Positions 1 through 24,048 of a stretch of DNA of 45,513 bases are shown here, piece after piece. The stretch spans positions 1 to 45,513 of the forward strand of contig JAISVI010000007.1 of NCBI GenBank assembly GCA_031271665.1. The letters are read 5' to 3'. The notes under the pieces are model-generated. The model was given only the letters and a program-made list of their open reading frames with translations, did no database searches and was not told the DNA's origin. Position 1 is the first letter of the stretch. Every line of letters starts with the position of its first letter. The translations under genes were made by a program, and so were the position numbers. This stretch comes from Oscillospiraceae bacterium (GTDB lineage: Bacteria; Bacillota; Clostridia; Oscillospirales; UBA929).

Positions 1-42
1 TGCTCCCAAAGCAAGTGCGCTACCAAACTGCGCCACGCCCCG
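1..42 (-). tRNA. tRNA-Pro(UGG), 5' part only (cut by the window edge)
   Basis: The reverse complement reads CGGGGCG-TG-GCGC-AGTTTGGTA-GCGC-A-CTTGC-TTTGGGA-GCA. This gives an acceptor stem, U8, a GCGC/GCGC D-stem with a GG D-loop, and an anticodon loop with UGG followed by G37. Confidence 0.75.
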
Positions 43-115
43 ATGTATTTTGTGCCGTAAGATAGCATATCACTTTCTATGGCCGATGTAAAGTTCCCGC
101 AGGAGGTTTTTTGCC

Positions 116-943
116 TTGAAGATTTTCGACGCGCACTGTGACACGCTTTCCGCCGGATTTGACCTTGGGCGCGGCGCGGGGCAGTTTGACACACAGCGCG
201 CAATAGCGCGCGGCGGCGGGGTTCAGGTAATGGCCGCCTTCGGCGCGGATCAGGAGGGGCAGCTTAGGCGGCTTTCCGGGTACGTCACGGACTGCCGCGA
301 GGCGCTTGAGCGCGGCGCGCTTGCGCTTATCCCGGCGCTGGAGGGCGGCGACGCCGTGACCTCGCTTGAAGACGCAGAAAGGCTTATCGGCTTGGGCGTG
401 CGCTTTTTCGGACTTACTTGGAATAATGACAACGCGCTTGGCGGCGGGTGCTTGGGGTCAAGCGGACTTACCGCGCTTGGCCGCGGAGTTACAGAGCTTT
501 GCGAAAACCGGGGCGTAACCGTAGATTTGGCGCACGCGTCGAAGCAGACGTTTTGGGACGTGCTGAACCGCGCAAAGCGCCCCCCCGCCGTCACCCACGC
601 CTGTGCCGAGACCCTCAGGGCGCATATGCGCAATCTGGACGACAGCCAGCTTCGCGCGTTGGGCGAGCGGGGCGGAGTAGTCGGAATCACCTTTTACGTT
701 CCGTTCCTGACGGATACGCCGTCGCTTGCGTTCGACGCGCTTATCGCGCATTTCCGGCACGCCGTAAGCATCGCCGGGGAAGACGCCGTTGGCATAGGCT
801 CGGACTTCGACGGCTGTGACGCGCTTCCGCCGGGGCTTGAGGACACATCGCGCCTGCCCGCGCTTATCGAAAGACTGCCGTTTCCCGGACGGATAAAGGA
901 CAAAATCGCGTACGGCAATTTCCGGCGGCTGATTACGGAATAA
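116..943 (+). CDS. membrane (renal-type) dipeptidase, peptidase M19 family
   Basis: 275-aa ORF with a TTG start. It has N-terminal FDAHCDT plus VDLAH and GSDFDG motifs typical of M19 dipeptidases. Its 3' end overlaps the convergent ATPase gene by 11 nt. Confidence 0.85.
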   Translation: MKIFDAHCDTLSAGFDLGRGAGQFDTQRAIARGGGVQVMAAFGADQEGQLRRLSGYVTDCREALERGALALIPALEGGDAVTSLEDAERLIGLGVRFFGLTWNNDNALGGGCLGSSGLTALGRGVTELCENRGVTVDLAHASKQTFWDVLNRAKRPPAVTHACAETLRAHMRNLDDSQLRALGERGGVVGITFYVPFLTDTPSLAFDALIAHFRHAVSIAGEDAVGIGSDFDGCDALPPGLEDTSRLPALIERLPFPGRIKDKIAYGNFRRLITE

Positions 944-2893: not shown

Positions 2894-5590
2894 CTATACT
2901 GTAAAAAGCGTCTCCGGCGGGGTGTCGGTATTTTGCCGCGCGTGGCTTTGTTTAAGGTATTCCCGGGAAGACGGGTCGTCTTGACCTTTTTTAAGAATCT
3001 CCAGAAACGCGCGCCGCGCCCTTGTATAGTCCGCGCTGTAATAACAGTCAACCCCCTGCCGGAACATATCCAAGGACGCGTCCTTTTTTTGTATCTGCGC
3101 GGCTGTGTCGCCGTCATAGAAATCGTACAGATTTCGCGTTTCGCCGCCGTCACCGATTATGCCAAGTCTGCGAAAGCGGTAGACATTGGCGTTTTCCATC
3201 GCGTCAAACGCGCCCTGCTCGACCATAAGGCGGCATCCGTAGCGCAGTCCGACCGGGCGTATTTCGTCCGCCTTGTGGGAAAAGCGCGAAAACAGCGTCA
3301 TGTTAAGCCGCCCGCCGTCCCCGGCAACCCCCAGAAATGAATCCGCGTAGGCAAGAAGGATACTGCACTCGATTTCCCCGTACGGCGTCCCCGCCGCCTC
3401 TTCGTTAAGGCGGTTTACCGCCGCGAGCATTGAAAGTGCCGCGTCCGCCGCCTTGCTTGGCGCGCAGTCCAAAAGCGCGCGCAGTTCGCGGCTGTTGAAG
3501 CGCTCGGCAACGCCGCCGAATTTTGCGAGCGCCGGAAGTATCCGCGCGTAAAAGCGGTTAAGCGCGACCAGGTGGTCTTCGTGCGTGTCAAAGCTTTCCG
3601 TCATAAGCAAAAGAAACATGGCTCTTGTCTGAATACAGTCCGCGGCGCGCACGTCCCGGATTGACGCTTTGTCCAAAACGGACAGCATTTCGCGCGGAAC
3701 AAATCGGCTGTAGGCGTCGCTTACCGAGCGTATCTCGACAATCGCGTTTTCCACAGAGGCGGCCATGCTGTTGAACGCGCTTGCGATCTCGCCCGTTTCG
3801 TCCAGATTGCGCACGTTCACCCGCGCGCCGTAATCGCCGTCCGCCACGGCAACGGCCCCGCGCCGCAGTCTGCCAAGCGCCCGCATCGTCACGGCGAGGA
3901 CGGCGGCAAGCGCGGCGATAAGCGCCGAAAGCACATAAAGGCAAAGGCGCGTCATCTGGCTTACGACGCTTTCGATGTCCGCGGCCATATCCCATTCCGG
4001 GGTGCTTACCTCTAAAAGCCCGACAAGTGTCTCCCCGTCCAAAACCGGGTACATAAGGGACAGCCACGCCCCCTCGTCGGCGCGGTCATACTGGCGCATA
4101 AAGACGGGCACCGTGCGCTTTTCCAGTAAATAATCCCGTTCCTCGCCCTGCGCAAGCGTGCCGTGGTAGTCCATATCCAGATTGACTATCGAATTGTCGC
4201 ATACCGCCACATAAACGCGTTTCCCTTCCACGCGGTAAAGCCAGTAGTTCATATAAATCGTTGTGACCTGCTCGCCCTGGCTGCCATGTCCCGACGCGTC
4301 GTAGACAGTGCGCTGGTGAAGACCCGACCACCCCCGAAGCTGATTGCGAAGGGAAAGAAAGTACTCGCTTGAGAACGGCTCGTCCCAGTTTATCCGCGCG
4401 AAGCGGGCCGCGTTGATGCCGGAAACCTTCTCCCGCGAGTCGGACAGTATCGCCGCGCGCGCGCTTTCGTACATAAGCGCGCGTATGCGCCCCGCCGATA
4501 CCGCGATAATAACGGCGGTGCCGACGGCGAAAACAGGGACGACGGCAAGCGCAAGCTTCAAAACAAGACTGACCCGGCGGCGTTTGTAAATATGGCGCGC
4601 GGCGCACAGTATAATGACGGCGGCCGCCGCTTCAAGCGCCGCCGGAACAAGCGTCTTTCCCGTCAGCAGAAAGCGCGGCGGTACGCGGACTTCGGGGAAG
4701 TCGCGCGTCTCCCCCGAAACGGATACCCTATAGCCCCCGTCCTTTTTAAGCGCGACCCATGTGTCTTCGCTAAGGGCGTTTACGCGGTAAATGTCGCGTA
4801 TGCCTTCCCGCACGGCTTCAAAGGAATCCGCCCCGGGCGCAAGCTTCAGCAAGGCATCCCCGTTCTCGCTGTCCGCGGCGAACAGGTAAAGCGCGCCGCC
4901 CGCCGTGGAAAGCTGCACGGCGGACATGCTCCCCGGCAGGTAAATATCTTCCCATTCCGCTCCCCGCAAGCGGTATACGCGGGAATCCGGCGACACCGCG
5001 TAAAGCGTTCCGCCGTCGGCCACCGCAAACCATGTAAGCGCGAACGGCAGCGGCGCGGTATCCCAAAGGCGCGTCTCGCCACTTTGTATATCAACGCGGT
5101 AAACGGTTAAAGCGCCGCCTGTTTCCGCGTAGAAAAGCCCGCCTTGGGAAATCCCCCCGGCGATTTCAAGCAAGCCGCCCCGCATTTCGCAAAGTGTGCG
5201 CGTATGCCCGGTGCGCATGTCGCATACGGCGATAAAGCTGTTTTGCGTCTGGGGCGAAGCATAGGGAAGCTCGTTTATACTCAGATAGACAAGTTCGTCC
5301 TCTTCGGCAAGAATATGCACCGTCCGGCGGGTCTTTCCGTCCGCTCCGTTTTTGGAAAAGCCGACAGCCCGCATAAGAGCGCCCTCCGGGGAGATTTCCC
5401 TAAGCGTAAGCGTATCCCCCCGCGCGTCATGGATGTCGCAGACTGTCCCCCGCGCCGTTATCATGCGCTCGGCCGAGCCGCTTACGCCGCGCAGTTCCAG
5501 ACCGCGAAGCCATACGTTAATCGCGGTGATTGCCGCCGTGACAATAAGTAAAAGCGCGATAAACGCGGGCGTGAACATCTTGCCTTTCAT
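2894..5590 (-). CDS. polytopic membrane receptor: two extracytoplasmic domains, HAMP, degenerate class III cyclase-homology domain, TPR-like tail
   Basis: 898 aa with four hydrophobic TM segments. A HAMP-like segment (DETGEIASAFNSMAASV) is followed by FVPREMLSVLDKASIRDV, the usual entry into cyclase-homology domains. The positions expected to hold the metal-binding Asp residues read LLLMTESFDT and FNSRELRALL. Gaps to the neighbouring core genes are 6 and 11 nt. Confidence 0.8.
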   Translation of the reverse strand: MKGKMFTPAFIALLLIVTAAITAINVWLRGLELRGVSGSAERMITARGTVCDIHDARGDTLTLREISPEGALMRAVGFSKNGADGKTRRTVHILAEEDELVYLSINELPYASPQTQNSFIAVCDMRTGHTRTLCEMRGGLLEIAGGISQGGLFYAETGGALTVYRVDIQSGETRLWDTAPLPFALTWFAVADGGTLYAVSPDSRVYRLRGAEWEDIYLPGSMSAVQLSTAGGALYLFAADSENGDALLKLAPGADSFEAVREGIRDIYRVNALSEDTWVALKKDGGYRVSVSGETRDFPEVRVPPRFLLTGKTLVPAALEAAAAVIILCAARHIYKRRRVSLVLKLALAVVPVFAVGTAVIIAVSAGRIRALMYESARAAILSDSREKVSGINAARFARINWDEPFSSEYFLSLRNQLRGWSGLHQRTVYDASGHGSQGEQVTTIYMNYWLYRVEGKRVYVAVCDNSIVNLDMDYHGTLAQGEERDYLLEKRTVPVFMRQYDRADEGAWLSLMYPVLDGETLVGLLEVSTPEWDMAADIESVVSQMTRLCLYVLSALIAALAAVLAVTMRALGRLRRGAVAVADGDYGARVNVRNLDETGEIASAFNSMAASVENAIVEIRSVSDAYSRFVPREMLSVLDKASIRDVRAADCIQTRAMFLLLMTESFDTHEDHLVALNRFYARILPALAKFGGVAERFNSRELRALLDCAPSKAADAALSMLAAVNRLNEEAAGTPYGEIECSILLAYADSFLGVAGDGGRLNMTLFSRFSHKADEIRPVGLRYGCRLMVEQGAFDAMENANVYRFRRLGIIGDGGETRNLYDFYDGDTAAQIQKKDASLDMFRQGVDCYYSADYTRARRAFLEILKKGQDDPSSREYLKQSHARQNTDTPPETLFTV

Positions 5591-5998: not shown

Positions 5999-6643
5999 TC
6001 ATAATTCAATTTTCTCTGTCATACCGCCGCGCAGGATATACAAAAGCCGCGCGTTTTCCGGTATCGGCACTCGCGCCGCGCCTTCCCCTATACGGAAAAG
6101 CGGCGTCACGCGGGAACGCGCGGGGAAATCGCGTACCGCCGGCTCCGAAAGGACATACTTTCCCCGTCCGCCTCCGGCGTTTAAGAAAACCGGGGTCTCC
6201 GTCCCGTCCGGGGCAGAGAGTATGTGCATAAGCCCCGACAAATCGGCGTAATCCTCTTTGCGCAGACTTATATCGCGCCCGCCCGCCCGCGTTTCGGCGC
6301 ACAGGGCATAGCCGCCGCGCTCACCGCGAAAGCCGATGTGCGCGCCGCCGTCAAGTTCGTAAACGCGCCCCCTCGCAACATGACGCGCAAGCAGCGCGGC
6401 GCGCAGAAAACCCTCGCCCTCCGAAACGCGCAGGGTAATCCCCGCGTAAAACTCCGACGCGACGGCCACAAGCGCCGGACGCGTTCCCGTGAAGACAAAG
6501 TGTCCGTCTTCCTTGGCCGCCGGGACGCAAAACCCGTCCGCGCCGCGTACGCGCAGCGAACGGTCGCCGGGCCAAACCGGCCTTCCCGTGGCAAAGTCGT
6601 CAAGGCGCACCACAAGCGAAGCCTTTACAAATCGAGCCGTCAT
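5999..6643 (-). CDS. hypothetical CIS-associated protein (N-terminal beta-sandwich, carboxypeptidase-regulatory-like pattern)
   Basis: 214 aa. Its start overlaps the stop of the DUF4255 gene by 4 nt, suggesting translational coupling. The N-terminus (LVVRLDDFATGRPVWPGDRSLRVRG..EDGHFVF) resembles prealbumin-like beta-sandwich domains. No other motif was recognised. Confidence 0.6.
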   Translation of the reverse strand: MTARFVKASLVVRLDDFATGRPVWPGDRSLRVRGADGFCVPAAKEDGHFVFTGTRPALVAVASEFYAGITLRVSEGEGFLRAALLARHVARGRVYELDGGAHIGFRGERGGYALCAETRAGGRDISLRKEDYADLSGLMHILSAPDGTETPVFLNAGGGRGKYVLSEPAVRDFPARSRVTPLFRIGEGAARVPIPENARLLYILRGGMTEKIEL

Positions 6644-7179
6644 ATATCCCGCGTTTCAAGCCCCGCCGCCCCGACGCGGGCGACGGGCGTAAACCTTTGC
6701 GACGCGACCGCGATTGGCGCGCATCGGTAAAACAGGGAAAGGCGGTACGCCGTGCCGGAAAACTGCCATATCTTGCTTACCCTGTCCTCGTCCGGCGAAA
6801 GCAGTTCTATCCGGGGCGCGGGTATGACGGCGGGCTGTACCGCGCCGGAGAAGGGCAGCACGTAAATGTCGGTCCAAAGCCGCATTACCCGTTCCAGAAC
6901 CTTATAGTCGTCCGCCAGACCGGATTTCTTCCCGGCATAGGATGTGACCATAAAGCGCATTTCGGCGCACAGGGGCGGTGCCTCTTTGCCCCCGTCCACG
7001 CGCAGGGCGTCCGTAAGCTGATAGCGCGCGTCCTTTACAAGGCTGTACGGGAACACCCCAAGCAGACATGTCTCGTCCATGTCCGCAGGCGAGCGAAGGC
7101 CGATCTGTCCGGGCTGAAGCAGCGGCGGAAGCCCGGCTCTAAGCGCGGACAGGATTGCCTGTGTAATATCCGAAAGCAT
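6640..7179 (-). CDS. DUF4255 tail terminator/cap protein (Afp16/Pvc16-like)
   Basis: 179 aa. The N-terminus (MLSDITQAILSALRAGLPP...IGLRSPADMD...LGVFPYSL) and the later MRFMVTSYA segment are typical of the DUF4255/Pvc16_N family. Confidence 0.85.
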   Translation of the reverse strand: MLSDITQAILSALRAGLPPLLQPGQIGLRSPADMDETCLLGVFPYSLVKDARYQLTDALRVDGGKEAPPLCAEMRFMVTSYAGKKSGLADDYKVLERVMRLWTDIYVLPFSGAVQPAVIPAPRIELLSPDEDRVSKIWQFSGTAYRLSLFYRCAPIAVASQRFTPVARVGAAGLETRDI

Positions 7180-7221
7180 GGCAAATCCCCCTATTTAACA
7201 CGTTCGGGCGCGGGGATTGTG

Positions 7222-7389
7222 CTAAGAGCCTGTTTACTATCTGTTCGCGGATGGGCTTTTGAGTTAAATTCGATGTGCCGCAAGGAAAAAGCGGAGTGAA
7301 TGCTTTGTGCATTCACGAGCATTTTGACGCGGCGGAACGCGAATTCAGCCAAAAGACCGCCGCACAACAGATAGTAAACAGGCTCTAAG
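7222..7389. mobile_element. 158-bp palindromic (MITE/ERIC-like) element with 19-bp terminal inverted repeats and a 5-bp CTAAG direct duplication
   Basis: The inverted repeat AGCCTGTTTACTATCTGTT (7227-7245) pairs with AACAGATAGTAAACAGGCT (7366-7384). CTAAG occurs at 7222-7226 and 7385-7389. The interior is a long imperfect hairpin with a central GTGAATGC/GCATTCAC stem. Removing the element plus one CTAAG copy restores an 11-nt intergenic gap. Confidence 0.7.
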
Positions 7390-8130
7390 GAATATAACGC
7401 CGCCATCCTCCGACGGGACGGGGTCTTCCGGGGGCGGGGACGTGGATTCCGGCGTGGGTTCGGGCGTCGGTTCCGGCGTGGGCGTGGGCGTTGGCGTGGG
7501 TTCGGGGGACGGCGTTGGGGAAACGGCCGGCTTTCCGTCCGGGCCGTATTCAACCCCGGCCTGCATCCGCGCGCCCTTCAGGTATTTGCCGGAAAAGACG
7601 GGATGCCCGGTTTCGGGGTTATACTCCGTCCCCTCGCCGTCAAAAAGCCCCGCTGAAAATTCGCCCTTATAGCAAACGCTGCCGCCTTCGTAAAGCGTAC
7701 CCTGCCCATGAAACAAATTGGCCTTAAACCCGCCGCTGTATCTGACGAGGCCGTCCGCGCCGTAAAGCGTCCCCGCCCCGTCATACCGGTTTTCCTGAAA
7801 GCCGCCCTCGTACAAAAGCTTTCCGTCTTCGTAAAGCCGCCCCTGTCCGGCGACGACGCCTTTGTCAATCTCGCCTTCGTATACAAGCGTTCCGTCCGGC
7901 GCAAGAAGCCTTGCCCGCCCGGTATACTCCGCAAGATAGGGCGAGTGCACCGAAAACTCCGGCACGGCTTTTTGGGAAATAATAAAGCGTATGACCGCCG
8001 GGTGTATTAAAAGCGCGTACGTGACTGCGGCGGCAAGCAGGGCGCAGGCAAGCCGCCACAGAAAGGCAAGGCTTGCAAAGCGCCGCCCCAGACGGACATA
8101 ACCCTTGATTTTACGGTGTGACGCTTTCAT
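7345..8130 (-). CDS. N-terminally TM-anchored MORN-repeat protein with a Pro/Thr-rich tail
   Basis: 261 aa. A TM segment (LAFLWRLACALLAAAVTYALLI) is followed by about six YEGxFxxxxxxGxGxL MORN-type repeats and then PTPSPEPTPTPTPTPEPTPEPTPE. The last 14 codons lie inside the palindromic element. The start overlaps the upstream gene by 20 nt. Confidence 0.85.
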   Translation of the reverse strand: MKASHRKIKGYVRLGRRFASLAFLWRLACALLAAAVTYALLIHPAVIRFIISQKAVPEFSVHSPYLAEYTGRARLLAPDGTLVYEGEIDKGVVAGQGRLYEDGKLLYEGGFQENRYDGAGTLYGADGLVRYSGGFKANLFHGQGTLYEGGSVCYKGEFSAGLFDGEGTEYNPETGHPVFSGKYLKGARMQAGVEYGPDGKPAVSPTPSPEPTPTPTPTPEPTPEPTPESTSPPPEDPVPSEDGGVIFLRACLLSVVRRSFG

Positions 8131-8962
8131 CTTCCAAAATCACCGTTCCGATTGACTTTATCGCGTTTTCCGGCGGGGGAGGGGCGAATACCGCGCGGCA
8201 GAACATCACCGCCGCAAGCGCAAAGCCCGCGAGAAGCGCCGCGGCCGCGAGAACAGGCGCGGCGCGGGCTTTAAGCGCTTCCGTAAAAGCCTCCGCGCGG
8301 GCGCGAAGCCCCGGCTTTTCCCGTTCCGGCTTTGGCGTAAGCGCCTCAATTTCCCGCGCGTCCCGCAGCGCGGCGGCGTACAGTTCGTCCCAACCGTGTG
8401 CCCTAAGGTCGGTAAGAAGACCGTAAAGCGCGCCCGTGTACGCGTCCGGGTAAATGCTTCTCACGGTTTCGGACAGATACAGCATGGTTTTTATACTGTC
8501 GTGCCGTATGTACTGCGAAGTCAGATAAAGGTCGTAGATAAAGCTTACTTCCCCGGATTCCGAACAGACAAGATTCTCCGGGCGCAGCAGGTCGCGCAGT
8601 ATGGGAAACGGCGTGTTCTGCGTAAGAAGGGCTGCCAGCAGCGACGTAAGCGCGCGGGTGCGCAGGCGCGGCGGCGCTTTGCTTATAACCGCGCAAAGCG
8701 CCCGCGTTTCCGGCGGCGCGCGGTGGCGGAACACGGCGCAAGACCCGCCGTCATACGGAAAAAACTCGACAAAGTCGGTAAACGCCGCGTTTTCAAGGAA
8801 TCCCATAAAGACCGGCGTAAGCTTGCGCGCAAGCGGCGGGTAGTCGGCAATGACAAGCAGGAAAAGCCCCTCTTCGCCGCGCGCTCGCGCGATAAGACGG
8901 CGCTTGTTGCCGCAAAGCCGCGCGAGTACCGTGTATCTGCGCGTCGGCGATTCCACGGTCAT
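8111..8962 (-). CDS. hypothetical membrane protein; possible degenerate protein-kinase-like (pseudokinase) domain plus C-terminal TM
   Basis: 283 aa. LRDLLRPENLVCSESGEVSFIYDL resembles a kinase catalytic loop (HRDLKPEN...DFG) in which the His and the DFG Asp are lost. A C-terminal TM segment (PVLAAAALLAGFALAAVMF) is present. The start overlaps the fibre gene stop by 4 nt. The fold assignment is tentative. Confidence 0.6.
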   Translation of the reverse strand: MTVESPTRRYTVLARLCGNKRRLIARARGEEGLFLLVIADYPPLARKLTPVFMGFLENAAFTDFVEFFPYDGGSCAVFRHRAPPETRALCAVISKAPPRLRTRALTSLLAALLTQNTPFPILRDLLRPENLVCSESGEVSFIYDLYLTSQYIRHDSIKTMLYLSETVRSIYPDAYTGALYGLLTDLRAHGWDELYAAALRDAREIEALTPKPEREKPGLRARAEAFTEALKARAAPVLAAAALLAGFALAAVMFCRAVFAPPPPENAIKSIGTVILEDESVTP

Positions 8963-10242
8963 GGCGGCGGAATTACGACGACAAAGGCGGTTCCCGTCAC
9001 GTCCGGCAGGGACGCGCTCGCGGCGCGCACGGTGTACACGCCCTGCCTGTCGGGCGCGACATAGAAGCCCTCTTTAGTAATGCCGCCGCTGTCCTGATCC
9101 TCGGCATACCAGACTATATCCTGCTTTGACATGCCCCTTGCCTCGGCGGTGAACTGAACGCTTTGCCGGAACGTAAGCCTTACGGAACCGGGCGTTATCA
9201 AAATCTGCGGCGCGGGCGTCGCCGCGCCCGCCCAGGCCGGGTCTGTTTCCGCCGCCCATATAAAGCGCACAACCTCTCCCTCGCTTTCGGTTTTAAGCCG
9301 TACGCCGATTTTGAACGTGCCGCTTTCCTCGTCCGTCTTTGCCGCCCACTCGTATTCGCGCGGGCAGAAGATTGACGGGTTTCCGAAAACCGCGCCCCCG
9401 CCGGTTTGCAGCCCAAGCGTCACGCATACGCCCGTCATGCCAAGCCCGTGTACGATATCGCCCGAGTAGTGCAAAGAACCGTACCGCGAACCCCCGGGGA
9501 TGTCCACCGCCGCCGTGCCGAAGGCGCGGGCGGGCGCGGGCGGCGAGGCAAGCCCATCCCTTGGCGGAGGGGGAAGCGGGCGCTCCGGCGCGGCGGGGGG
9601 CGGCGGCACATGCTCCGGCGCGGAGGGTACGGCGGCTTTCTGACCGAACGGAAGGACATCTATGCCTTCAATCTCAAAGGCGTCCTCCCACCGCGAAAGG
9701 CGGATGCGCGCCAGATAAAGCCGCGTAAGCAAACCGCGTTCCAGCTTGTTTTCAAGGGATTCGCTTCGCGGGTCTTCGGGCGGGGCGCTTATTTCGCGCG
9801 CGTCCGGCTCGCCGTAACGAAGGTAAAGTCTTGCCCTCTCCTCGGCGCGCCCGTACTTCTCTTCGTCAAGGGGCGCGTCGGTAAGCGCGCGCACGGGTTC
9901 GGAAGGCGTTTCGCGGTATTCGGCGCACAGATAGACGTGCTTTTCCGTCCCGTAGTCGTCCCCGAATCCCGCAAGCTCGGAAAGCCGGGCCACAACGGGC
10001 TTGTCAAGCGCCACCTCGCGCCCAAGACCGTCAAACGCAAGCCCCGACTCAACGGCCACCATTATATCGTTAAGCTTCATAACGCCCAATCCGCACACCA
10101 CCCCCGGGCCGTACAGAAGGGCGTTCAGAAGCCGCCGCTTGTTGTTCATATAGGTTTGTTCCGCTTCCATGTCGCGCCCAGTCAGAAGCTTGCCGAAGAA
10201 ATACTTATTGCGCGAAAGCGGGAAAAGTTCCGTGTTCTCCAT
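8959..10242 (-). CDS. CIS fibre-like / distal baseplate protein with Pro-rich linker and C-terminal Ig-like domain
   Basis: 427 aa. The N-terminal RNKYFFGKLLTGRDMEAEQTY motif is one I recall from proteins that follow baseplate genes in CIS loci. A PPPPAAPERPLPPPP linker is followed by a C-terminal Big_2-like segment (ITPGSVRLTFRQSVQFTAEA...GVYTVRAAS). Confidence 0.75.
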   Translation of the reverse strand: MENTELFPLSRNKYFFGKLLTGRDMEAEQTYMNNKRRLLNALLYGPGVVCGLGVMKLNDIMVAVESGLAFDGLGREVALDKPVVARLSELAGFGDDYGTEKHVYLCAEYRETPSEPVRALTDAPLDEEKYGRAEERARLYLRYGEPDAREISAPPEDPRSESLENKLERGLLTRLYLARIRLSRWEDAFEIEGIDVLPFGQKAAVPSAPEHVPPPPAAPERPLPPPPRDGLASPPAPARAFGTAAVDIPGGSRYGSLHYSGDIVHGLGMTGVCVTLGLQTGGGAVFGNPSIFCPREYEWAAKTDEESGTFKIGVRLKTESEGEVVRFIWAAETDPAWAGAATPAPQILITPGSVRLTFRQSVQFTAEARGMSKQDIVWYAEDQDSGGITKEGFYVAPDRQGVYTVRAASASLPDVTGTAFVVVIPPP

Positions 10243-15269: not shown

Positions 15270-15448
15270 CCCCTTAGTTCAGAGCTTGCTGAATAAGCGC
15301 ACTGTTACGCTTCACAACTTTTTTCGACCGGCAAATTCGGAATTTTTCGCTTTGGTTTCTGCGAAACAAAGCTCCAAAATTCTGAATTTGACAACTCGCG
15401 CCTTCGGTGCTTCGGGTCGAAAAAAAGTTGTTCAGCAGCCCCTTAGTT
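15270..15448. mobile_element. about 159-bp palindromic (MITE/ERIC-like) element flanked by a direct repeat of up to 10 bp (CCCCTTAGTT)
   Basis: CCCCTTAGTT occurs at 15270-15279 and 15439-15448. The interior folds as a long imperfect hairpin: CACAACTTTTTTCGACC/GGTCGAAAAAAAGTTGT, AAATTCGGAATTTT/AAAATTCTGAATTT, and a central GCTTTGGTTTC/GAAACAAAGC stem. Removing it restores a 12-nt gap between the spike and gp25 genes. Confidence 0.65.
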
Positions 15449-16162
15449 TATCTTCGTCATAGAACCCTTCAGCGTCAGTATGCCGCTGCTTTCCACTTTG
15501 ACGTTCGCGCCGGTAAGCTCGGCGCTTTGCGCGTTAAGCTTCGCCGTACTGCCGTCAAGCTTTACCTGCTTGCCTTTAAGGGTAAGGGCGTTTTCCGCGT
15601 CAAGCGTCACGGACTGCCCTTTAAGCGTTATCTTGCCGGTGATTGTAATTGTTTCCGCCTTGATGTCAAGCTTATCCCCGGACTCCAGTTTGACGGACGT
15701 GCCGTTTTCGTCCAGTTCAAGCTTCTGCTTCCCGTCATTCGTTTGTATTTTTATTTTTTTTGCCTTCTCGTCAATCTCGATGACATGCCCGGATTCGCTC
15801 TTAACGGTTATCTTCCCGTCGTCGCCGTCTTTAAGCGTGATGCTATGCTTTCCCTTGGTGACAAACTTCCGTATAAGGTTGTCTTTGTCGGCGGTTTCCG
15901 CCGGGACGGTGTTCTTCGTGTTCCAAAGACTGCCAAGGACGACCGCGCAGTGCGCGTCCCCGCCGATAAACCCCACTATAACCTGCGCGCCCTTTTCCGG
16001 CAGAAGGTACACGCCGTAATCCTTCCCCGCATACGGCGCGGCCACGCAAAGCCATTCGGTCGCGCGTCCCTCGGCGTCAAAGGAGGGGAAGGACACCCTC
16101 ACCATGCCGGGGTGCTTGGCGTCGTAGTTCTCGGTAACGGTTCCAAGTATAAGTCCGTTCAC
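15443..16162 (-). CDS. gpV/VgrG-like central spike (Afp8-like)
   Basis: 239 aa. The N-terminus (GTVTENYDAKHPGMVRVSFPS...EWLCVAAPYAGKDYGVYLLPEKGAQVIVGFIGGD) is a gpV/gp5 OB-fold signature. The C-terminus consists of repetitive beta-helix-like K/T/L-rich repeats. Confidence 0.9.
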   Translation of the reverse strand: MNGLILGTVTENYDAKHPGMVRVSFPSFDAEGRATEWLCVAAPYAGKDYGVYLLPEKGAQVIVGFIGGDAHCAVVLGSLWNTKNTVPAETADKDNLIRKFVTKGKHSITLKDGDDGKITVKSESGHVIEIDEKAKKIKIQTNDGKQKLELDENGTSVKLESGDKLDIKAETITITGKITLKGQSVTLDAENALTLKGKQVKLDGSTAKLNAQSAELTGANVKVESSGILTLKGSMTKIN

Positions 16163-16169
16163 CGCTTTT

Positions 16170-17201
16170 CTAACCTCCTATGCCGATTTCCGTGACGAAG
16201 CCGTCTTCGCTGTTCATGCGGTGATGCACGGAAACGACGGTAAATCTGTCCCCGGTAAGCGCGGCGAAGGGGCATTTGTTAATCTTGATTTTCTGCCCAA
16301 GCTTCACTTCCGGTATGCCCCGGCAGTATACGCGGCCGGCGACCGCTTCGCGCTTGGCGGCGTCCGCAGCCGCCGCCACCACGGCCTTGCCCGCGTCGCC
16401 AAGCAAGTGCGGCGGCAACGGTATGATGCGCGTGACCGCAAGAAGATTTTTCTGCGTTCCCTTCGCGTCCTTTTGCGAGGAGAATTCTTCCATCTTGGCG
16501 TGGTCGTAACCCATGCCGGTAATTTTCAAATCCACATACCTTGCGCCAAGTTCCAGTTCCGTGTCGGGCCAGTCAAACTCCACGCAGACCGTGTCCTTCG
16601 CGCCGCCCACATACGCCTTGCCGCAGTCGATGTAAAAGTAATGCCCGCGCAAATCGGCAGCGTCCTGAATAAAGTCCAAATCGCCGCCCGCCTGCGTCAC
16701 GCAGACCTCTTTCTCAAGCGCCGCGAGGGTGACTTCCTTGGCGCTTACCAACGGGCTGTACAGATCCAGAAGGCTTTCGGCGATATTCTGAACGGTTTTC
16801 CCCTTCGCGGCGGTATAGCGCGCGCCAAGGCGCATAAGCGCGCGGGCGTCCAGGCATACGGCGCTTAGGCAGATGTTTTCGCCGTCAAAGCGCATGGCAA
16901 GCTCGTCGACATACCCCGAGAACACTTCGCTTACGCTGCTTCCGTAGCCAAGGGAAAGCGAAATACGGCTGCCCGGTTTAAGCTTGTCAAGCGCGGTTTG
17001 CGAGAACTGGCCGGAACCGTGTTCATATACGTCGTGAACCGTGAAGGCGCACGCCCCTGCGGTTTTGCCCATGCCGTTATCCACCGTGATGCCGTCAATC
17101 ATAAACTCGCTTCTTGAAAGCTCGCTGCCCGCGCCGAAGACCTTGTACGCGGGGACGGTGAAGCCGCCGTATGCCGTCCTTAAATCGGAATACTTGCTCA
17201 T
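16170..17201 (-). CDS. late control gene D-like baseplate hub protein (Afp7-like)
   Basis: 343 aa. Its size, its position immediately upstream of the spike gene and its pattern (F.V.V.G......F....V.......A..C.F.V) fit the gpD family. It overlaps the LysM gene by 4 nt. Confidence 0.8.
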   Translation of the reverse strand: MSKYSDLRTAYGGFTVPAYKVFGAGSELSRSEFMIDGITVDNGMGKTAGACAFTVHDVYEHGSGQFSQTALDKLKPGSRISLSLGYGSSVSEVFSGYVDELAMRFDGENICLSAVCLDARALMRLGARYTAAKGKTVQNIAESLLDLYSPLVSAKEVTLAALEKEVCVTQAGGDLDFIQDAADLRGHYFYIDCGKAYVGGAKDTVCVEFDWPDTELELGARYVDLKITGMGYDHAKMEEFSSQKDAKGTQKNLLAVTRIIPLPPHLLGDAGKAVVAAAADAAKREAVAGRVYCRGIPEVKLGQKIKINKCPFAALTGDRFTVVSVHHRMNSEDGFVTEIGIGG

Positions 17202-17836
17202 CGCTTTTCAATGGGCGGGATTTTCAGCACCATGCCCGCCTGTACGCGGCGCGGGTTGCGTATGCCGTTGGCTGCGGCGATACGCCGCCACTCCCCGCAG
17301 TCGTTATAGGCGTCAAAAGCCACAAGGTAAAGCGGCGTATCCGGCCCAAGCACCCGCCGTTTGGTGCGGTCGGGCGATTCAAGCCCCGGCTTCGCGCCCT
17401 TCTTGCCCTGAATCGTTATGCTGACCGTGGCGCGAACCGGCTTCCCCTCGGCGGTGAACATGGTGAAATTGACGTTCAAGGCGGTTATGTGGCCGCTGTA
17501 TTTGGTGGTTCCCCACTCGAAGGTACAGCCGGGGGGCTTATGCAAATCCGGCTTTATCCGCACAAGCTCGCGAAGCGCCTTGACCTTGCCGGAGATGTCT
17601 TTGGCGTCCTTTTCGCTTGCGGAGTTTGCCGGAAAGCCGTCAAGCGTCATTTTAAGGGAAAGGGTGCTGCTTCCCTCGCCGATGAATTCCGTCTTTCCCT
17701 GCGCGTCGGCAACGCCCTTGGCGTCCGCGTACTTGGGGGCGTAATCCACCGTGAAATCCGCGGGGTTAAAATCAAAGTTTATGCGGCTTGTCTCTTTCTC
17801 CTTGTCGTCCAAAACGACAATGCACGCTTTCTCCAT
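17198..17836 (-). CDS. CIS tube-initiator protein with C-terminal LysM domain (Afp5/Pvc5-type)
   Basis: 212 aa. The N-terminal FDFNPADFTV... tube-like fold is followed by a C-terminal LysM (YLVAFDAYNDCGEWRRIAAANGIRNPRRVQAGMVLKIP). Confidence 0.85.
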   Translation of the reverse strand: MEKACIVVLDDKEKETSRINFDFNPADFTVDYAPKYADAKGVADAQGKTEFIGEGSSTLSLKMTLDGFPANSASEKDAKDISGKVKALRELVRIKPDLHKPPGCTFEWGTTKYSGHITALNVNFTMFTAEGKPVRATVSITIQGKKGAKPGLESPDRTKRRVLGPDTPLYLVAFDAYNDCGEWRRIAAANGIRNPRRVQAGMVLKIPPIEKR

Positions 17837-19727: not shown

Positions 19728-21443
19728 CTATTCAGTGGCGGTTTTCTGCGTAAGGCGGAAGATGACAAATTCGGCGGGCTTGACCGGCGCGATGCCGATA
19801 ACGCAGATCAGCCGCCCGTTGTCAATGTCCCCCTGCGACATGGTAGAGTGCCCCACCTGAACGTAAAACGCCTCTGCCGAAGACGCGCCCGCAAGCGCCC
19901 CGTCGCGCCACAGGCCGGACAGGAACACCTCGATAGTGCGCTGTACGCGCGTCCAAAGCGTTTCGTCGTTCGGCTCGAACACGACCCAGTTTGTGTTTGC
20001 CTTGATACTTTCCTCGACAAAAATGAAAAGGCGGCGCACGTTTATGTATTTCCAAAGCCCGTTCGAGCTTGCGGTGCGCGCGCCCCAGACGTTTATGCCC
20101 TGGCCGGGGAACGAGCGGATAAGGTTGACGCCGCGCGGGTTAAGGATGTCCTGCTCGCCCTTGTTATACTGAACGCTTAGTCCGGCGCAGGCGCGCACAA
20201 CCTCGTTCGCGGGGGCCTTATGCACGCCGCGCGTGGCGTCGCTGCGCGCGTATATGCCGATAACCGAACCCGAGGGCGGGATATGGATGTTTTTCTGGTC
20301 AAGCGGGTCAAACACCGAAAGCCAAGGGTGGTACAGCGCGGCGTACTGGGTGTTGAAAAGCTCGCGGTGCGCAATAAGCTCGTCCGTCTTGGCAAGTTCC
20401 TTGGGCATGTCAAGCACCGCGAAGCGCGAGGCAAGGGTTTCGCAGTGCGCGACAAGGGTAAGCTGTACGTTCGCGTCGGTAATCCCCGGCACGGCCATAA
20501 TACTGCATACGGGATTGTCGATAAACGCCTGAATGCCCGTGCGCTTGCCGGGGCCGTTATCCTCGCCGATGAAGGTGCCGGCGGAAACGCTGTCGGCGGT
20601 ACCGCTTGACCCGCCCGCGAAGCCGATTGTCAGTTCCTGTGTCTCATCCCCCGCGATAAGCTTAAACGGCGGCTCCGCGCCCTCGGGTATGTCGCCAAGC
20701 GTGACGCGGACAAGTTCGGATCTGGCCATTTTCTTGACGATATGGTTCGGGATTGCGGGGTTCAGCGAAAGGTTTCCATAGTTCTCGGCCACATCGTCAT
20801 GATAGACGTCCAGATTGAACTCGCAGGTATACAAAAGCTTTTTCGGCACAATTGCGTCGTCGGCGTCGCCCTCGTCAAGCGCCTCGGCAAACTCCAGTAC
20901 ATTGTCCTGGGATTTGACCACGCGGTTATACTTCTTCTCTTCGCCGTCGGAAAGCATCACAATGTCCCCGGCGTAAAAGCCCGCGCCGCTTTTTACCGCC
21001 GCCCGCGTCGGCTCGAGCAGCTTCATAATCTGCGTTTTGGCCTTGCTTGCGGGGGTGATGACCGCCTTCAGGTCGTTGCCCCACGCGCCCGCGCTTGCGG
21101 CGGTCAGTTTAAGGGGGGATTCGTGCGCCGCTTCGGCAATTTTCGCGTCGGAGGGGATGACGCGGCTTATAAAGGCGCGGGTTCCGCCGTTGATAAAGAA
21201 ATGCTCTGCCGCATAGGCAAGATACCGGTAATCGCCGAACTCAAGCGCGCTTAAATAACCGCCGTATTTGCGTTTGTAATCCGCAATCCCCGTTACAAGC
21301 TGGGGAATGCCGCCGACAGGGCCTTTTGCCGCAAGTCCGACAAACCCCGCCGTGGAAGTCCCCACACCTTCCATCGGCACGGGGCCGCTGTCAAATTCCT
21401 CGACGTAAACGCCCGGGGACAGGTATTCGGGCATACTGCTCAT
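19728..21443 (-). CDS. CIS contractile sheath protein (Afp2-4-like)
   Basis: 571 aa. The N-terminus (MPEYLSPGVYVEEFDSGPVPMEGVGTSTAGFVG) is canonical for tail sheaths. The true start is probably the second ATG at 21434, which lies 9 nt after the GGGAGG RBS. Confidence 0.95.
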   Translation of the reverse strand: MSSMPEYLSPGVYVEEFDSGPVPMEGVGTSTAGFVGLAAKGPVGGIPQLVTGIADYKRKYGGYLSALEFGDYRYLAYAAEHFFINGGTRAFISRVIPSDAKIAEAAHESPLKLTAASAGAWGNDLKAVITPASKAKTQIMKLLEPTRAAVKSGAGFYAGDIVMLSDGEEKKYNRVVKSQDNVLEFAEALDEGDADDAIVPKKLLYTCEFNLDVYHDDVAENYGNLSLNPAIPNHIVKKMARSELVRVTLGDIPEGAEPPFKLIAGDETQELTIGFAGGSSGTADSVSAGTFIGEDNGPGKRTGIQAFIDNPVCSIMAVPGITDANVQLTLVAHCETLASRFAVLDMPKELAKTDELIAHRELFNTQYAALYHPWLSVFDPLDQKNIHIPPSGSVIGIYARSDATRGVHKAPANEVVRACAGLSVQYNKGEQDILNPRGVNLIRSFPGQGINVWGARTASSNGLWKYINVRRLFIFVEESIKANTNWVVFEPNDETLWTRVQRTIEVFLSGLWRDGALAGASSAEAFYVQVGHSTMSQGDIDNGRLICVIGIAPVKPAEFVIFRLTQKTATE

Positions 21444-21594: not shown

Positions 21595-24048
21595 ATGGCT
21601 CGCATGAGGCCTAATATGTTTTCGCCGCCGACGCAGGACGCGTTTTCCGTCGAGCGCAAGGCCGCCGTCGCGGAAATGGAGTCTGTTCCAAGACGGTGCA
21701 TTGTATACATACACGCGCCCGCCGGCTTCGGCAAGACGGCCGCGTGCGCGCAGTGGCTTTCGGGAAGAAAAACCGCGTGGTTCACTTTGGACGGGTATAC
21801 CGCGGACGCGGCGCGCTTCTGCGGCGGGGTTTTGGACGCGCTTTCGGCGGGAGTCCCGGCGGGCGCGGTTACTTCAGATGTTTTTGCGGAAGCCTTGCGG
21901 GGCGTAACCGTCTGGCCCTCGGCGCTTGTAATCGACGACTTCCACCTTTGTACGGACACGCGGGCGCAGAAAGCGCTTCTCCTTCTCCGCGCGCGTATGC
22001 CGGGGGAAACGTCGCTTGCGGTTATAAGCCGCGCCGCGCCGCCGGAAGCTCTGCGCGCGCAACTTGTCAAGGGGGCGCTGCGCCCCGTGACCGGCCTTGC
22101 GTTCAGCAGTGAGGAGATTTCGGCGCTTGCGCGGAAAATGGGCAGTCCCGTTACACAATACTTTTCCGGGTTTCTTTTTAAGCAGACCGGGGGCTGCGCG
22201 GCCGCGCTCGCGCAGATACTGCATTCCGGCGACGGCGGCTATTGCGGCGTTCCGGGGCGCGAAAGCCTTAACGCGTATATGCGGGGTCTTGTCTTTGACG
22301 CGGAGTATTTCGGCGCGCTTAAAAAATGCGCCGTCTGCGACACATTGAATCCTTCCCTCTGCGCCGCGATTACCGGAACGCACGGCATCTGGGCGCATAT
22401 CTGCACCCTTGCCGGGAAGACGGGGCTTATTGCCGGGCTTCCCGGCGGGGAGTGGCGTTTCCATACGCTTCTGCGCGACTATCTTGAATACGAGCTTCTG
22501 CGCGACGGCACGATAGACAAACCCGCGCTTTTTAAGGCGGCGGCGGCGTGGCATATGGAAAACGGGGACTTGCTGCGCGCCCTTGATATGGCCGCGAAAA
22601 GCGGCGACCTTGCTTTTGCGGACGGGCTTTCCGATATTCCGCAAAACAAAAAAGCCCCTGTAAGCGCGGCGCGGTACGCGGCGCTTATAGAGGCAAGTTT
22701 CCTTTCAATACCCATGGGCGTCACGCGCGATTACCCGCGTTTGGCCAATCACTGCTTCGCGGCGGCGCTGCTGGCGCGCCCGCTGCGGGAAGCCCTTCGC
22801 TGGGCGGACATTATGGAAGGGCATATGTCCGGCGGGACTTTGCGCGGGGAGGACAAAACCCGCGCCGCGTTCTTTCTTTCGGCGGATACCCGTCATTCAA
22901 GCTGGCATGTGCCGGGGCAGATTGGGCGGCTTGCCGCAAGCCCTCTCGCCGCGAACCTGCCGACGCTTACCTGCAATCTGCCGTTCTTCCACAAGGCACA
23001 GCGGGACTTTTCGGATATCGCCCCAAAACTTCGCGAGTATACCGCCGCGCTGAAACAGCGGATTGGGGAAGAACCGCCCCCGCCGCTTGGTGCGCTTGTC
23101 TCGCTTATAGAGGCGGGCGTACGCTTCGAGCGCGGAGAACTTGCCGAGGCCGAAAACGCCGCGCGTGATCTCTGCGCGCTGTCCGAACACCTATGCCCCG
23201 AAATTTTCTTCTGCGTCCACGCGCTGTATTCCGAGATAAGGCGCGTACAGGGGAAGAAGGCCGAGCCGGAGAGAATCGGTGAAATGATCGCGCGCAAGGA
23301 CGCCCTTTTCCTGCGTGACAATTACGCCGCGTTCCTTACGGAAACGCGGCTTTACGTCGCTGACCGGGCAAGCGCGGAACTTTGGCTTGGCCGCGCGGGG
23401 CCGGAGGGGCCGGTACGGCTTCACAACCTATACGTATACTTTGTAAAGGCGCGCGCGCTGTTGGTTTTAAACAGGCTTTACGAGGCGGAAACACTTTTTG
23501 AAGAGCTGGCCGCCTTCGCGCGCGAGTACCGCAGGAACGCCGACTTTATCTCTGCGCACTGCCTTTTGGCTGTTTGCAGATGGCGCATGAAAAGGCCGTC
23601 GGAGGCCGTCGAGGCCGCCGTCCCCGCGCTTTTAAAAGCCGCCGAGCTTGGGCTTGTCATGCCCGTCGCCCGGGAGGGCGGCGGTATGCTGCCAGTTCTG
23701 CGTAAGGTTATTAACCGTCTTAAATACGGCTATGACCCGCAGCGGCTTGACAGGGCGTTTCTGGGGGTGCTGTACCGCCATACGGCAAGCGTTGCCTGCG
23801 GCGTACCCGGACTATTCGCCGGGCATACGGAAAGACCGGTAAGCCTTTCTCCAAGACAGAGCGAAGTGCTTGGGTGTCTTGAAAACAACCTTAGCTACCG
23901 GGAAATCGCGCGCCGCCTTGGCATATCTCCCGCGACGGTGGACGACCATATACGCCGCCTGCACGAAAAGCTTAACGCCACTAGCACCCGGGAAGCGCTT
24001 AACCGCGCGCGGGAACTTGGTATCCGGACGGGGGTGAGAAAAATATAA
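21595..24048 (+). CDS. MalT/LAL-type STAND ATPase regulator with C-terminal LuxR HTH
   Basis: 817 aa. The N-terminal P-loop (IHAPAGFGKTAACAQWL) is followed by a long helical/TPR-like middle region and a C-terminal LuxR-type HTH (LSPRQSEVLGCLENNLSYREIARRLGISPATVDDHIRRLHEKL). An alternative start exists at 21604. Confidence 0.9.
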   Translation: MARMRPNMFSPPTQDAFSVERKAAVAEMESVPRRCIVYIHAPAGFGKTAACAQWLSGRKTAWFTLDGYTADAARFCGGVLDALSAGVPAGAVTSDVFAEALRGVTVWPSALVIDDFHLCTDTRAQKALLLLRARMPGETSLAVISRAAPPEALRAQLVKGALRPVTGLAFSSEEISALARKMGSPVTQYFSGFLFKQTGGCAAALAQILHSGDGGYCGVPGRESLNAYMRGLVFDAEYFGALKKCAVCDTLNPSLCAAITGTHGIWAHICTLAGKTGLIAGLPGGEWRFHTLLRDYLEYELLRDGTIDKPALFKAAAAWHMENGDLLRALDMAAKSGDLAFADGLSDIPQNKKAPVSAARYAALIEASFLSIPMGVTRDYPRLANHCFAAALLARPLREALRWADIMEGHMSGGTLRGEDKTRAAFFLSADTRHSSWHVPGQIGRLAASPLAANLPTLTCNLPFFHKAQRDFSDIAPKLREYTAALKQRIGEEPPPPLGALVSLIEAGVRFERGELAEAENAARDLCALSEHLCPEIFFCVHALYSEIRRVQGKKAEPERIGEMIARKDALFLRDNYAAFLTETRLYVADRASAELWLGRAGPEGPVRLHNLYVYFVKARALLVLNRLYEAETLFEELAAFAREYRRNADFISAHCLLAVCRWRMKRPSEAVEAAVPALLKAAELGLVMPVAREGGGMLPVLRKVINRLKYGYDPQRLDRAFLGVLYRHTASVACGVPGLFAGHTERPVSLSPRQSEVLGCLENNLSYREIARRLGISPATVDDHIRRLHEKLNATSTREALNRARELGIRTGVRKI

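Follow-up and report, generated by a model that had tools for sequence, protein, structure and literature searches.

The window analysed here is a stretch of 45,513 nucleotides (nt) from an Oscillospiraceae bacterium (contig JAISVI010000007.1 of assembly GCA_031271665.1), and a complete operon for a contractile injection system (CIS) lies on its minus strand (933-21443). This work concerns two genes of that operon, which encode a predicted pseudokinase with a transmembrane helix and a transmembrane protein with MORN repeats. Reading in the direction of transcription, the Cis13-like gene (8959..10242, minus strand; 427 amino acids (aa), NCBIfam CIS13_fam, called 'fibre-like' in an earlier sequence-only reading) is followed by the pseudokinase gene (8111..8962, minus strand), an open reading frame (ORF) of 283 aa. 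The strand then continues as the MORN gene (7345..8130, minus strand; 261 aa), assigned from its ORF, a Pfam MORN match and its orthologues. The cap gene (Pvc16_N; 6640..7179, minus strand) is located directly downstream of the pair. Its family, PF14065, is presumably the DUF4255 by which the cap gene had been named before.

The reading frames overlap at both junctions. The stop codon of the Cis13-like gene and the start codon of the pseudokinase gene share the 4 nt ATGA (8959..8962, minus strand), and the MORN gene begins (ATG at 8130) within the 3′ end of the pseudokinase gene, giving an overlap of 20 nt (8111..8130, minus strand). Both ORFs, their location between the fibre-like and cap genes and the two overlaps are present just as the sequence-only reading had described them. 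Thirteen independent related loci were recovered (L001, L004, L006, L009, L010, L011, L012, L013, L015, L016, L017, L018 and L019); contig scans with one degenerate pattern provided three loci from genome contigs and two from metagenome contigs. The identical 4-nt overlap also occurs in L001, L004, L012 and L016, and overlaps of 11-35 nt between the pseudokinase and MORN genes are kept in L001, L004, L006, L009, L012 and L013. The overlaps probably reflect translational coupling of the pair with the Cis13-like gene, a gene of the baseplate periphery, and the genes are probably co-transcribed.

The 283-aa protein comprises a kinase-like domain (residues ~1-210), a long helix (219-259) and a C-terminal tail (260-283). 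Full-length relatives were found at 41-62% identity, and an exhaustive profile search gathered 93 clusters (at 50% identity) into the family, nearly all with lengths of 270-300 aa. Searched alone, the protein has no match in Pfam (Pkinase included), PHROGs or NCBIfam, nor does a six-sequence profile match any PDB sequence. A family profile of 60 sequences does match protein kinases in the PDB: MNK1 (E = 8e-5), CDPK1 (E = 2.8e-4) and MNK2 (E = 1.7e-3). The match extends over alphaC, beta4-beta5, the hinge, alphaE and the catalytic loop, and the alignment places the family motif LkpeNll (LRPEN in the window protein) on HRDLKPENIL(C) of MNK1.

Structure prediction leads to the same fold. The first AlphaFold2 model, based on six sequences, was weak, with a predicted local distance difference test (pLDDT) score of 68. 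Its top match was Bacillus subtilis YukC (9qks_C, 221 residues, corresponding to YukC residues 1-225; PMC12637312), followed by >160 protein kinases. The second model, based on the 60-sequence alignment, has a pLDDT of 91.8 and a predicted TM-score (pTM) of 0.76. In a Foldseek search with this model every one of the top 50 PDB matches is a Hanks-type kinase domain (E = 5e-5 to 7e-4), and among the best are those of the membrane-anchored bacterial kinases YabT (6g4j_A, E = 5.9e-5) and PknB (3ork, E = 6.6e-5). Matches in a viral structure library are likewise almost all (Ser/Thr) kinases.

The catalytic elements are degenerate. The segment LRDLLRPENLVCSESGEVSFIYDL (residues 122-145; 8528..8599, minus strand), located by hidden Markov model alignment and column counts, extends from the catalytic loop to the 'DFG' position. 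Under the profile alignment the His of HRD is replaced by Arg123 and the catalytic Asp by Leu125. An acidic residue lies one position ahead of the latter site (Asp124; Asp or Glu in 46 of 60 sequences), so that a register shift is possible. Of the 60 sequences, 49 keep Asn130. The DFG motif has become F-x-Y-x-L, where Tyr143 is invariant and located at or beside the DFG position; Asp144 is found in 21 of 60. There is no Gly-rich GxGxxG loop; the window protein has ARLCGNKRRL at this place, and no glycine pattern is conserved across the 60 sequences. The position of the beta3 lysine (VAIK) is occupied by Asp40, with Lys in 30 and Arg in 6 of 60 relatives. Since the Gly-rich loop, the beta3 lysine and the aspartates of HRD and DFG are all missing, the alignments and the model identify the protein as kinase-derived and predicted to be inactive, i.e. 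a pseudokinase. The sequence-only reading had seen in this segment a likeness to a kinase catalytic loop and DFG region with the key His and Asp lost, and both this and a kinase-like fold are supported by the predictions. The family also has a signature of its own, FTDFVEFF, in the beta4 region (residues 61-68; 8759..8782, minus strand), in which F61, D63 and F68 are nearly invariant. One relative, P0072 of Anaeromicropila populeti (L010:10001-10855), is labelled 'Serine/threonine protein kinase' in UniRef and hypothetical at NCBI. With kinase motifs this degenerate, the automatic UniRef label probably over-states activity.

The chain of the pseudokinase is predicted to cross the membrane once. 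The transmembrane helix (residues 237-259; 8186..8254, minus strand) is evident from hydropathy and in the model, where it forms the end of a continuous juxtamembrane and transmembrane helix (residues 219-259). It is followed by a tail of 24 aa, close to the ~25 aa estimated earlier. Across the family, 87 of 97 members have exactly one C-terminal hydrophobic helix, with a tail that is mostly 18-52 aa in length. The tail carries the motif IGTVIL (residues 271-276; 8135..8152, minus strand; general form IGTV(I/V)L), present in 77 of the 97 members. Its Ile271 and Gly272 are invariant (60 of 60), and are the strongest conservation found outside the kinase-like domain.

The 261-aa protein matches Pfam MORN (PF02493) with 33.4 bits against a cut-off of 22.5, and its orthologues, at 37-64% identity, score 59-93 bits. 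MORN is the only Pfam or NCBIfam family to which either of the two proteins gave a match. Starting at the N terminus, a basic segment MKASHRKIKGYVRLGRR leads into a signal-anchor transmembrane helix (residues ~18-42; 8005..8079, minus strand); the 15 residues ahead of this helix carry a net charge of +6, and the charge behind it is +1. Next comes a conserved juxtamembrane segment (PEFS..SPYL..Y.G.ARL), and then five MORN units of 23-25 residues each, starting at residues 84, 107, 131, 154 and 179 (residues 84-195; 7546..7881, minus strand). A linker rich in Pro, Thr and Glu (residues 204-244; 7399..7521, minus strand) is encoded partly by 24-nt direct repeats. The protein terminates with a VIFLR motif (7384-7398) and 12 final residues (together 7348..7398, minus strand). 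The motif has the form (I/V)(L/V)F(L/I)(R/K) in orthologues, while the last 12 residues are specific to the window and are encoded by one arm of an inverted repeat. The layout proposed from sequence, a short N-terminus followed by one transmembrane helix, MORN repeats and a Pro/Thr linker, is thus correct except in the number of MORN units, which is five and not about six.

The closest orthologues are longer, at 401-411 aa (L001:10809-12014, L004:5465-6700 and L012:5169-6383). They have one or two additional MORN units and a conserved domain of ~150 residues between the linker and the motif ILFLR, both of which the window protein lacks. The orthologue in L009 (413 aa) also lacks this C-terminal domain (CTD), and L016 has the domain without MORN units. 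From these comparisons the predicted outside modules are shuffled within the lineage, and the layout in the window is one of several natural variants. The IGTV-type tail of the pseudokinase (8135-8152) and the VIFLR-type motif of the MORN protein (7384-7398) are both short, highly conserved, hydrophobic and predicted to lie outside the membrane. They might form paired strands that join the two proteins. The two motifs do not always occur together, for L010 has the IGTV-type motif and no VIFLR-type motif.

All the loci recovered show the order Cis13-like gene, pseudokinase gene, MORN gene or a fusion, and cap gene, as far as their contigs extend. The hosts are Oscillospiraceae, Clostridiales UBA929, Eubacteriales Family XIII and the Lachnospiraceae isolate Anaeromicropila populeti; many of the relatives, which come from Oscillospiraceae and other Clostridia, are from termite-gut samples. 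In all 12 loci with upstream DNA the pseudokinase gene is immediately preceded by a Cis13-like gene. A separate MORN gene comes straight after the pseudokinase gene in nine loci, and the cap gene is next wherever the contig reaches. The most distant comparison, with the cultured A. populeti, has 21% identity for the pseudokinase. With respect to L004 the identities are 62% for the pseudokinase, 62% for the MORN protein, 62% for the Cis11-like protein and 69% for the Cis13-like protein, and in general the identity of the pair to its orthologues tracks that of the baseplate genes. The sequence-only reading had called the pair 'non-core' and 'inserted', which is misleading: all the related CIS loci recovered have it at this position, and synteny and divergence rates point to a long-standing part of the CIS lineage that co-diverges with it. 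Synteny in 13 loci together with co-divergence with the baseplate genes rules out a strain-specific insertion. A phage or plasmid origin was rejected as well, no relative being found in IMG/VR, among INPHARED phages or among PLSDB plasmids. On this comparative evidence the pair is a lineage-wide accessory module of this group of CIS.

The same data bear on the suggestion that the two proteins are cargo (an effector), an immunity pair or part of a released particle such as a fibre accessory. The genes adjoin the fibre-like gene, and MORN arrays are protein-binding modules, both of which speak for it. Yet both proteins contain a hydrophobic transmembrane helix, they are conserved in sequence and position across Clostridia families at the rate of the baseplate genes, and neither matches a toxin or immunity family in Pfam, PHROGs or NCBIfam. 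Effectors of extracellular CIS (eCIS) are variable, soluble and usually encoded downstream of the ATPase. Cargo is unlikely, and we regard this group of explanations as a whole as very improbable.

Three natural fusions, all encoded at the operon position of the pair, indicate how the proteins are disposed with respect to the membrane. P0057 (691 aa, L015:3258-5333) joins the pseudokinase, a single transmembrane helix and a MORN array in one chain. P0010 (433 aa, L016:8001-9302) combines the pseudokinase with the N-terminus, transmembrane helix and CTD of the MORN protein, without MORN units. In P0086 (394 aa, L017:551-1735) the pseudokinase, transmembrane helix and IGTV tail are extended by a charged linker and a LysM domain that scores 27.2 bits (Pfam cut-off 20.9). 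Because one transmembrane helix separates the modules in each of these proteins, the pseudokinase is predicted to be cytoplasmic, with the MORN, CTD or LysM modules on the outer side. The charge bias around the transmembrane helices of both window proteins is consistent with this topology, as is the lack of any hydrophobic segment ahead of the C-terminal helix of the pseudokinase. A domain on either side of the membrane, as proposed in the sequence-only reading, is therefore supported as a prediction by the single-transmembrane and LysM fusions. The fusions in L015 and L016, with the conserved overlapping reading frames, argue that the two window proteins work together.

We propose that the pair forms a two-part transmembrane adaptor or firing checkpoint that couples the CIS to the envelope, a reading whose chances we judge to be about even. 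The two genes would encode the halves of a bitopic, membrane-spanning accessory complex of Clostridia CIS, a heteromer held together by association of the transmembrane helices, the outside tails or both. Inside the cell the pseudokinase domain would be a catalytically dead docking platform for a component of the baseplate. The first candidate for this partner would be the Cis13-like protein, of which residues 9-151 match NCBIfam CIS13_fam (E = 6.8e-23, below the equivalog cut-off) and the C-terminus has a weak Ig-like match. On the other side the MORN array and linker, with the CTD or LysM in relatives, would tie the complex to the wall or sense it. Such a complex would bring the cytoplasmic particle to the cytoplasmic membrane, license its firing, or both.

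Several observations weigh against this proposal. The Ig-like end of the Cis13-like protein, and an eCIS_core/DUF4157 gene in L016, are in keeping with an extracellular CIS that is released, and such a system would have no obvious need of an anchor in the membrane. The outside part is very variable in MORN number and in the presence of the CTD and LysM, and the window protein lacks the CTD; it may thus be dispensable. The TM-scores to kinases are modest (0.40-0.48; 0.32-0.48 over the top 50 matches), to which the long transmembrane helix and the compact C-lobe contribute. Lastly, half of the family keeps the beta3 lysine and many have a residue of the Asp124 type, so some members may bind nucleotide or have residual activity.

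If the particle is released, the pair might instead weaken or open the envelope of the producer for its escape, as a holin-like or lysis-accessory device. Released eCIS need lysis of the producer (PMC12237407). Consistent with such a function, the scanned ORFs of the operon and its flanks gave no match to a recognisable holin or endolysin, and relatives carry the wall-binding LysM. The proteins themselves do not resemble holins, endolysins or spanins, and have no PHROG lysis match. A folded cytoplasmic pseudokinase domain of ~210 aa is without precedent in lysis cassettes, and the genes are coupled to cis13 and placed between baseplate and cap, not in a late lysis cassette. A release device is improbable on balance.

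The adaptor that we propose has a functional parallel in CisA (SCO4242) of the cytoplasmic CIS of Streptomyces coelicolor, a bitopic protein with its N-terminus inside and C-terminus outside that is required for firing and contraction (PMC12237407). Like the pair, CisA comes from a monoderm host, and its gene directly follows those of the baseplate, at the place that fibre genes usually take in eCIS. Its proposed role is to bring the particle to the membrane and to act as a firing checkpoint (PMC12237407). Its overall layout is like that of P0057. The components are different. The N-terminus of CisA is largely disordered where the pair has a folded pseudokinase, its outside domain resembles solute-binding proteins where the pair has MORN repeats and a Pro/Thr linker, and it is one polypeptide where the pair is encoded by two overlapping genes. 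The role of CisA has been shown genetically, whereas that of the pair is inferred from sequence and models. Close homologues of cisA are reported to be absent from Roseiflexus, a CIS bearer outside Streptomyces (PMC12998442).

The second parallel is with EssB/YukC of type VIIb secretion (T7SSb) and with TraF, from the type IV secretion system (T4SS) of pIP501. These too are Bacillota membrane proteins in which an N-terminal cytoplasmic pseudokinase precedes a transmembrane helix, and in YukC and TraF this catalytically inactive domain is a hub for interactions in a large envelope machine (PMC12637312, PMC13037476). Foldseek ranked YukC first for the weak six-sequence model. This ranking was not reproduced with the pLDDT-92 model, for which active Hanks kinases score better than YukC. 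The Pfam YukC family is not matched by the window protein or five close relatives at E values up to 10, and PDB sequence searches with two family profiles did not return YukC. A specific relationship to YukC is therefore not claimed. The resemblance to EssB/YukC noted in the sequence-only reading stands for the architecture and the general fold and does not extend to membership of the sequence family. YukC and TraF differ also in having a large outside domain on the same chain, in place of a 24-aa tail and a separate outside protein that is fused only in relatives (P0057), and EssB, YukC and TraF belong to T7SS or T4SS loci and not to a CIS operon. The neighbourhood of the pair is not that of a T7SSb, for which an EssC/YukB ATPase and WXG100 substrates would be expected; it is a CIS operon between housekeeping genes.

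More general likenesses are found among membrane-anchored bacterial kinases and contractile machines. YabT of Bacillus subtilis, which lacks a sensor domain, is a kinase with a C-terminal transmembrane helix and a short tail, a layout it has in common with the 283-aa protein. P0057 mimics the sequence of kinase, transmembrane helix and outside repeats in PknB/PrkC, whose repeats are PASTA domains. Unlike the pair, YabT, PknB and PrkC are active, with intact Gly-rich loop, VAIK, HRD and DFG, and are not encoded in CIS operons. The TssJLM complex of the type VI secretion system and the anchoring of the cyanobacterial thylakoid CIS (tCIS) are alike in using dedicated parts to fix a contractile machine to the membrane of the producer (PMC12237407). 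They differ in that the proteins are unrelated and the hosts diderm, and in that the tCIS is anchored by baseplate extensions and not by separate bitopic proteins (PMC12237407).

The remainder of the operon is that of an Afp/PVC-like CIS, with sheath, tube, spike, baseplate (Cis11/12), Pvc16 cap and AAA+ ATPase genes clustered. All are on the minus strand. From its 5′ end the operon encodes the sheath (19728-21443), the tube proteins, including a tube-LysM protein (17198-17836), the hub (16170-17201) and the VgrG-like spike (15443-16162). The spike is followed by a Baseplate_J protein of 810 aa, and there are two more baseplate proteins, of 364 aa (TIGR02243) and 369 aa (CIS12-like/Tail_P2_I). 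After the cap come a 214-aa protein, a DUF4280 PAAR-like protein, a HAMP protein and the AAA+ ATPase. Housekeeping genes border the operon at both ends, with an M19 dipeptidase gene at one and those for Lgt, formate-tetrahydrofolate ligase and alanyl-tRNA synthetase at the other. It is therefore chromosomal. Beyond the AAA+ ATPase the window (1-943) has no obvious effector gene, and the M19 dipeptidase is next, on the opposite strand. At the corresponding place related loci have the eCIS_core/DUF4157 gene (L016:14919-16007) and an ORF of ~1,400 aa (L001:18875-20825).

Two of the genes could have a regulatory function. The HAMP protein (2894..5590, minus strand; 898 aa), a multi-pass membrane protein encoded between the DUF4280 and AAA+ ATPase genes, has ~4 transmembrane segments, a HAMP domain at residues 568-614 and a C-terminal part of ~280 aa. 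The C-terminal part was without match in Pfam and PDB sequence searches. By eye it resembles a degenerate class III cyclase domain with a TPR-like end. The protein is kept inside the CIS operon of L001, L004, L009, L015 and L016, and its place in A. populeti is taken by a 341-aa transmembrane/TPR protein and a SpoIIE-type PP2C phosphatase. We infer that it is possibly a partner or sensor for the pair. Divergent from the sheath gene, the plus strand encodes a LuxR/GerE-family regulator of 817 aa (21595-24048) that contains a TPR region like that of MalT and matches AAA weakly; this LuxR/MalT-type protein is a candidate regulator of the operon.

These neighbours could make the pair a signalling module and not a physical anchor. 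With the HAMP protein (or the PP2C/SpoIIE phosphatase of Lachnospiraceae relatives) and the LuxR/MalT regulator, it would sense an envelope or contact signal and control expression, assembly or firing without docking. The conserved HAMP protein, the phosphatase at its place in A. populeti, the LuxR/MalT-like regulator and the beta3 lysine kept in part of the family are all in keeping with this, and many pseudokinases are allosteric regulators. Against it, the pair sits mid-block among structural genes and is tightly coupled to one of them, cis13, and the window operon encodes no kinase partner, receiver or phospho-acceptor domain. We consider signalling without docking doubtful. The two functions are compatible, as CisA has been proposed to be both adaptor and sensor (PMC12237407).

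The 3′ end of the MORN gene coincides with an inverted repeat (7207-7404). Its 55-nt arms (7207-7261 and 7350-7404) contain a perfect 21-nt core that is found nowhere else in the window. Within the repeat lie the last 12 codons of the MORN gene with its stop, as well as most of the spacer (165 nt) that precedes the cap gene. As RNA it folds into a long hairpin with a free energy (dG) of -94 kcal/mol (z = -8.5), the apex of which has a terminator-like stem and T-run (7296-7316, minus strand). The repeat is absent from the orthologous loci. Because their spacers are 0-45 nt the element is probably an insertion specific to the window genome, and may be an intra-operon attenuator or an insertion like a miniature inverted-repeat transposable element. 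It was discounted as the cause of the short MORN protein, of which it explains at most the last 12 residues; the L009 orthologue also lacks the CTD, and that locus has no such element. The only Rfam match of the hairpin region, to a plant miRNA, was spurious and far below threshold.

Of the factors by which the CIS of Gram-positive bacteria meet a membrane, CisA in Streptomyces is the only one to have been characterised. The literature searched contained no paper joining 'contractile injection system' with 'pseudokinase', and those combining it with 'MORN' were irrelevant, mostly as judged by title. In gut and termite Clostridia the pair would be a different accessory module, with a cytoplasmic pseudokinase platform, two transmembrane helices and wall-facing repeats. 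By analogy, it may be a CIS-associated membrane adaptor made from parts other than those of CisA, converging on the pseudokinase-transmembrane solution of the T7SSb and the Gram-positive T4SS. This would extend the theme of Bacillota pseudokinase-transmembrane proteins as assembly hubs of envelope machines. The availability of a cultured carrier, A. populeti DSM 5832, makes the adaptor hypothesis directly testable. A more speculative and rather doubtful view is that this Clostridia lineage of CIS is a membrane-docked, outward-firing machine of monoderms, in effect the equivalent, for Gram-positives, of the type VI secretion system, with a pseudokinase-transmembrane hub and a wall-spanning MORN protein as its envelope complex. 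If that were true, Bacillota would have recruited dead-kinase transmembrane scaffolds independently for three envelope nanomachines, with EssB in the T7SSb, TraF in the T4SS and the pseudokinase described here in the CIS.

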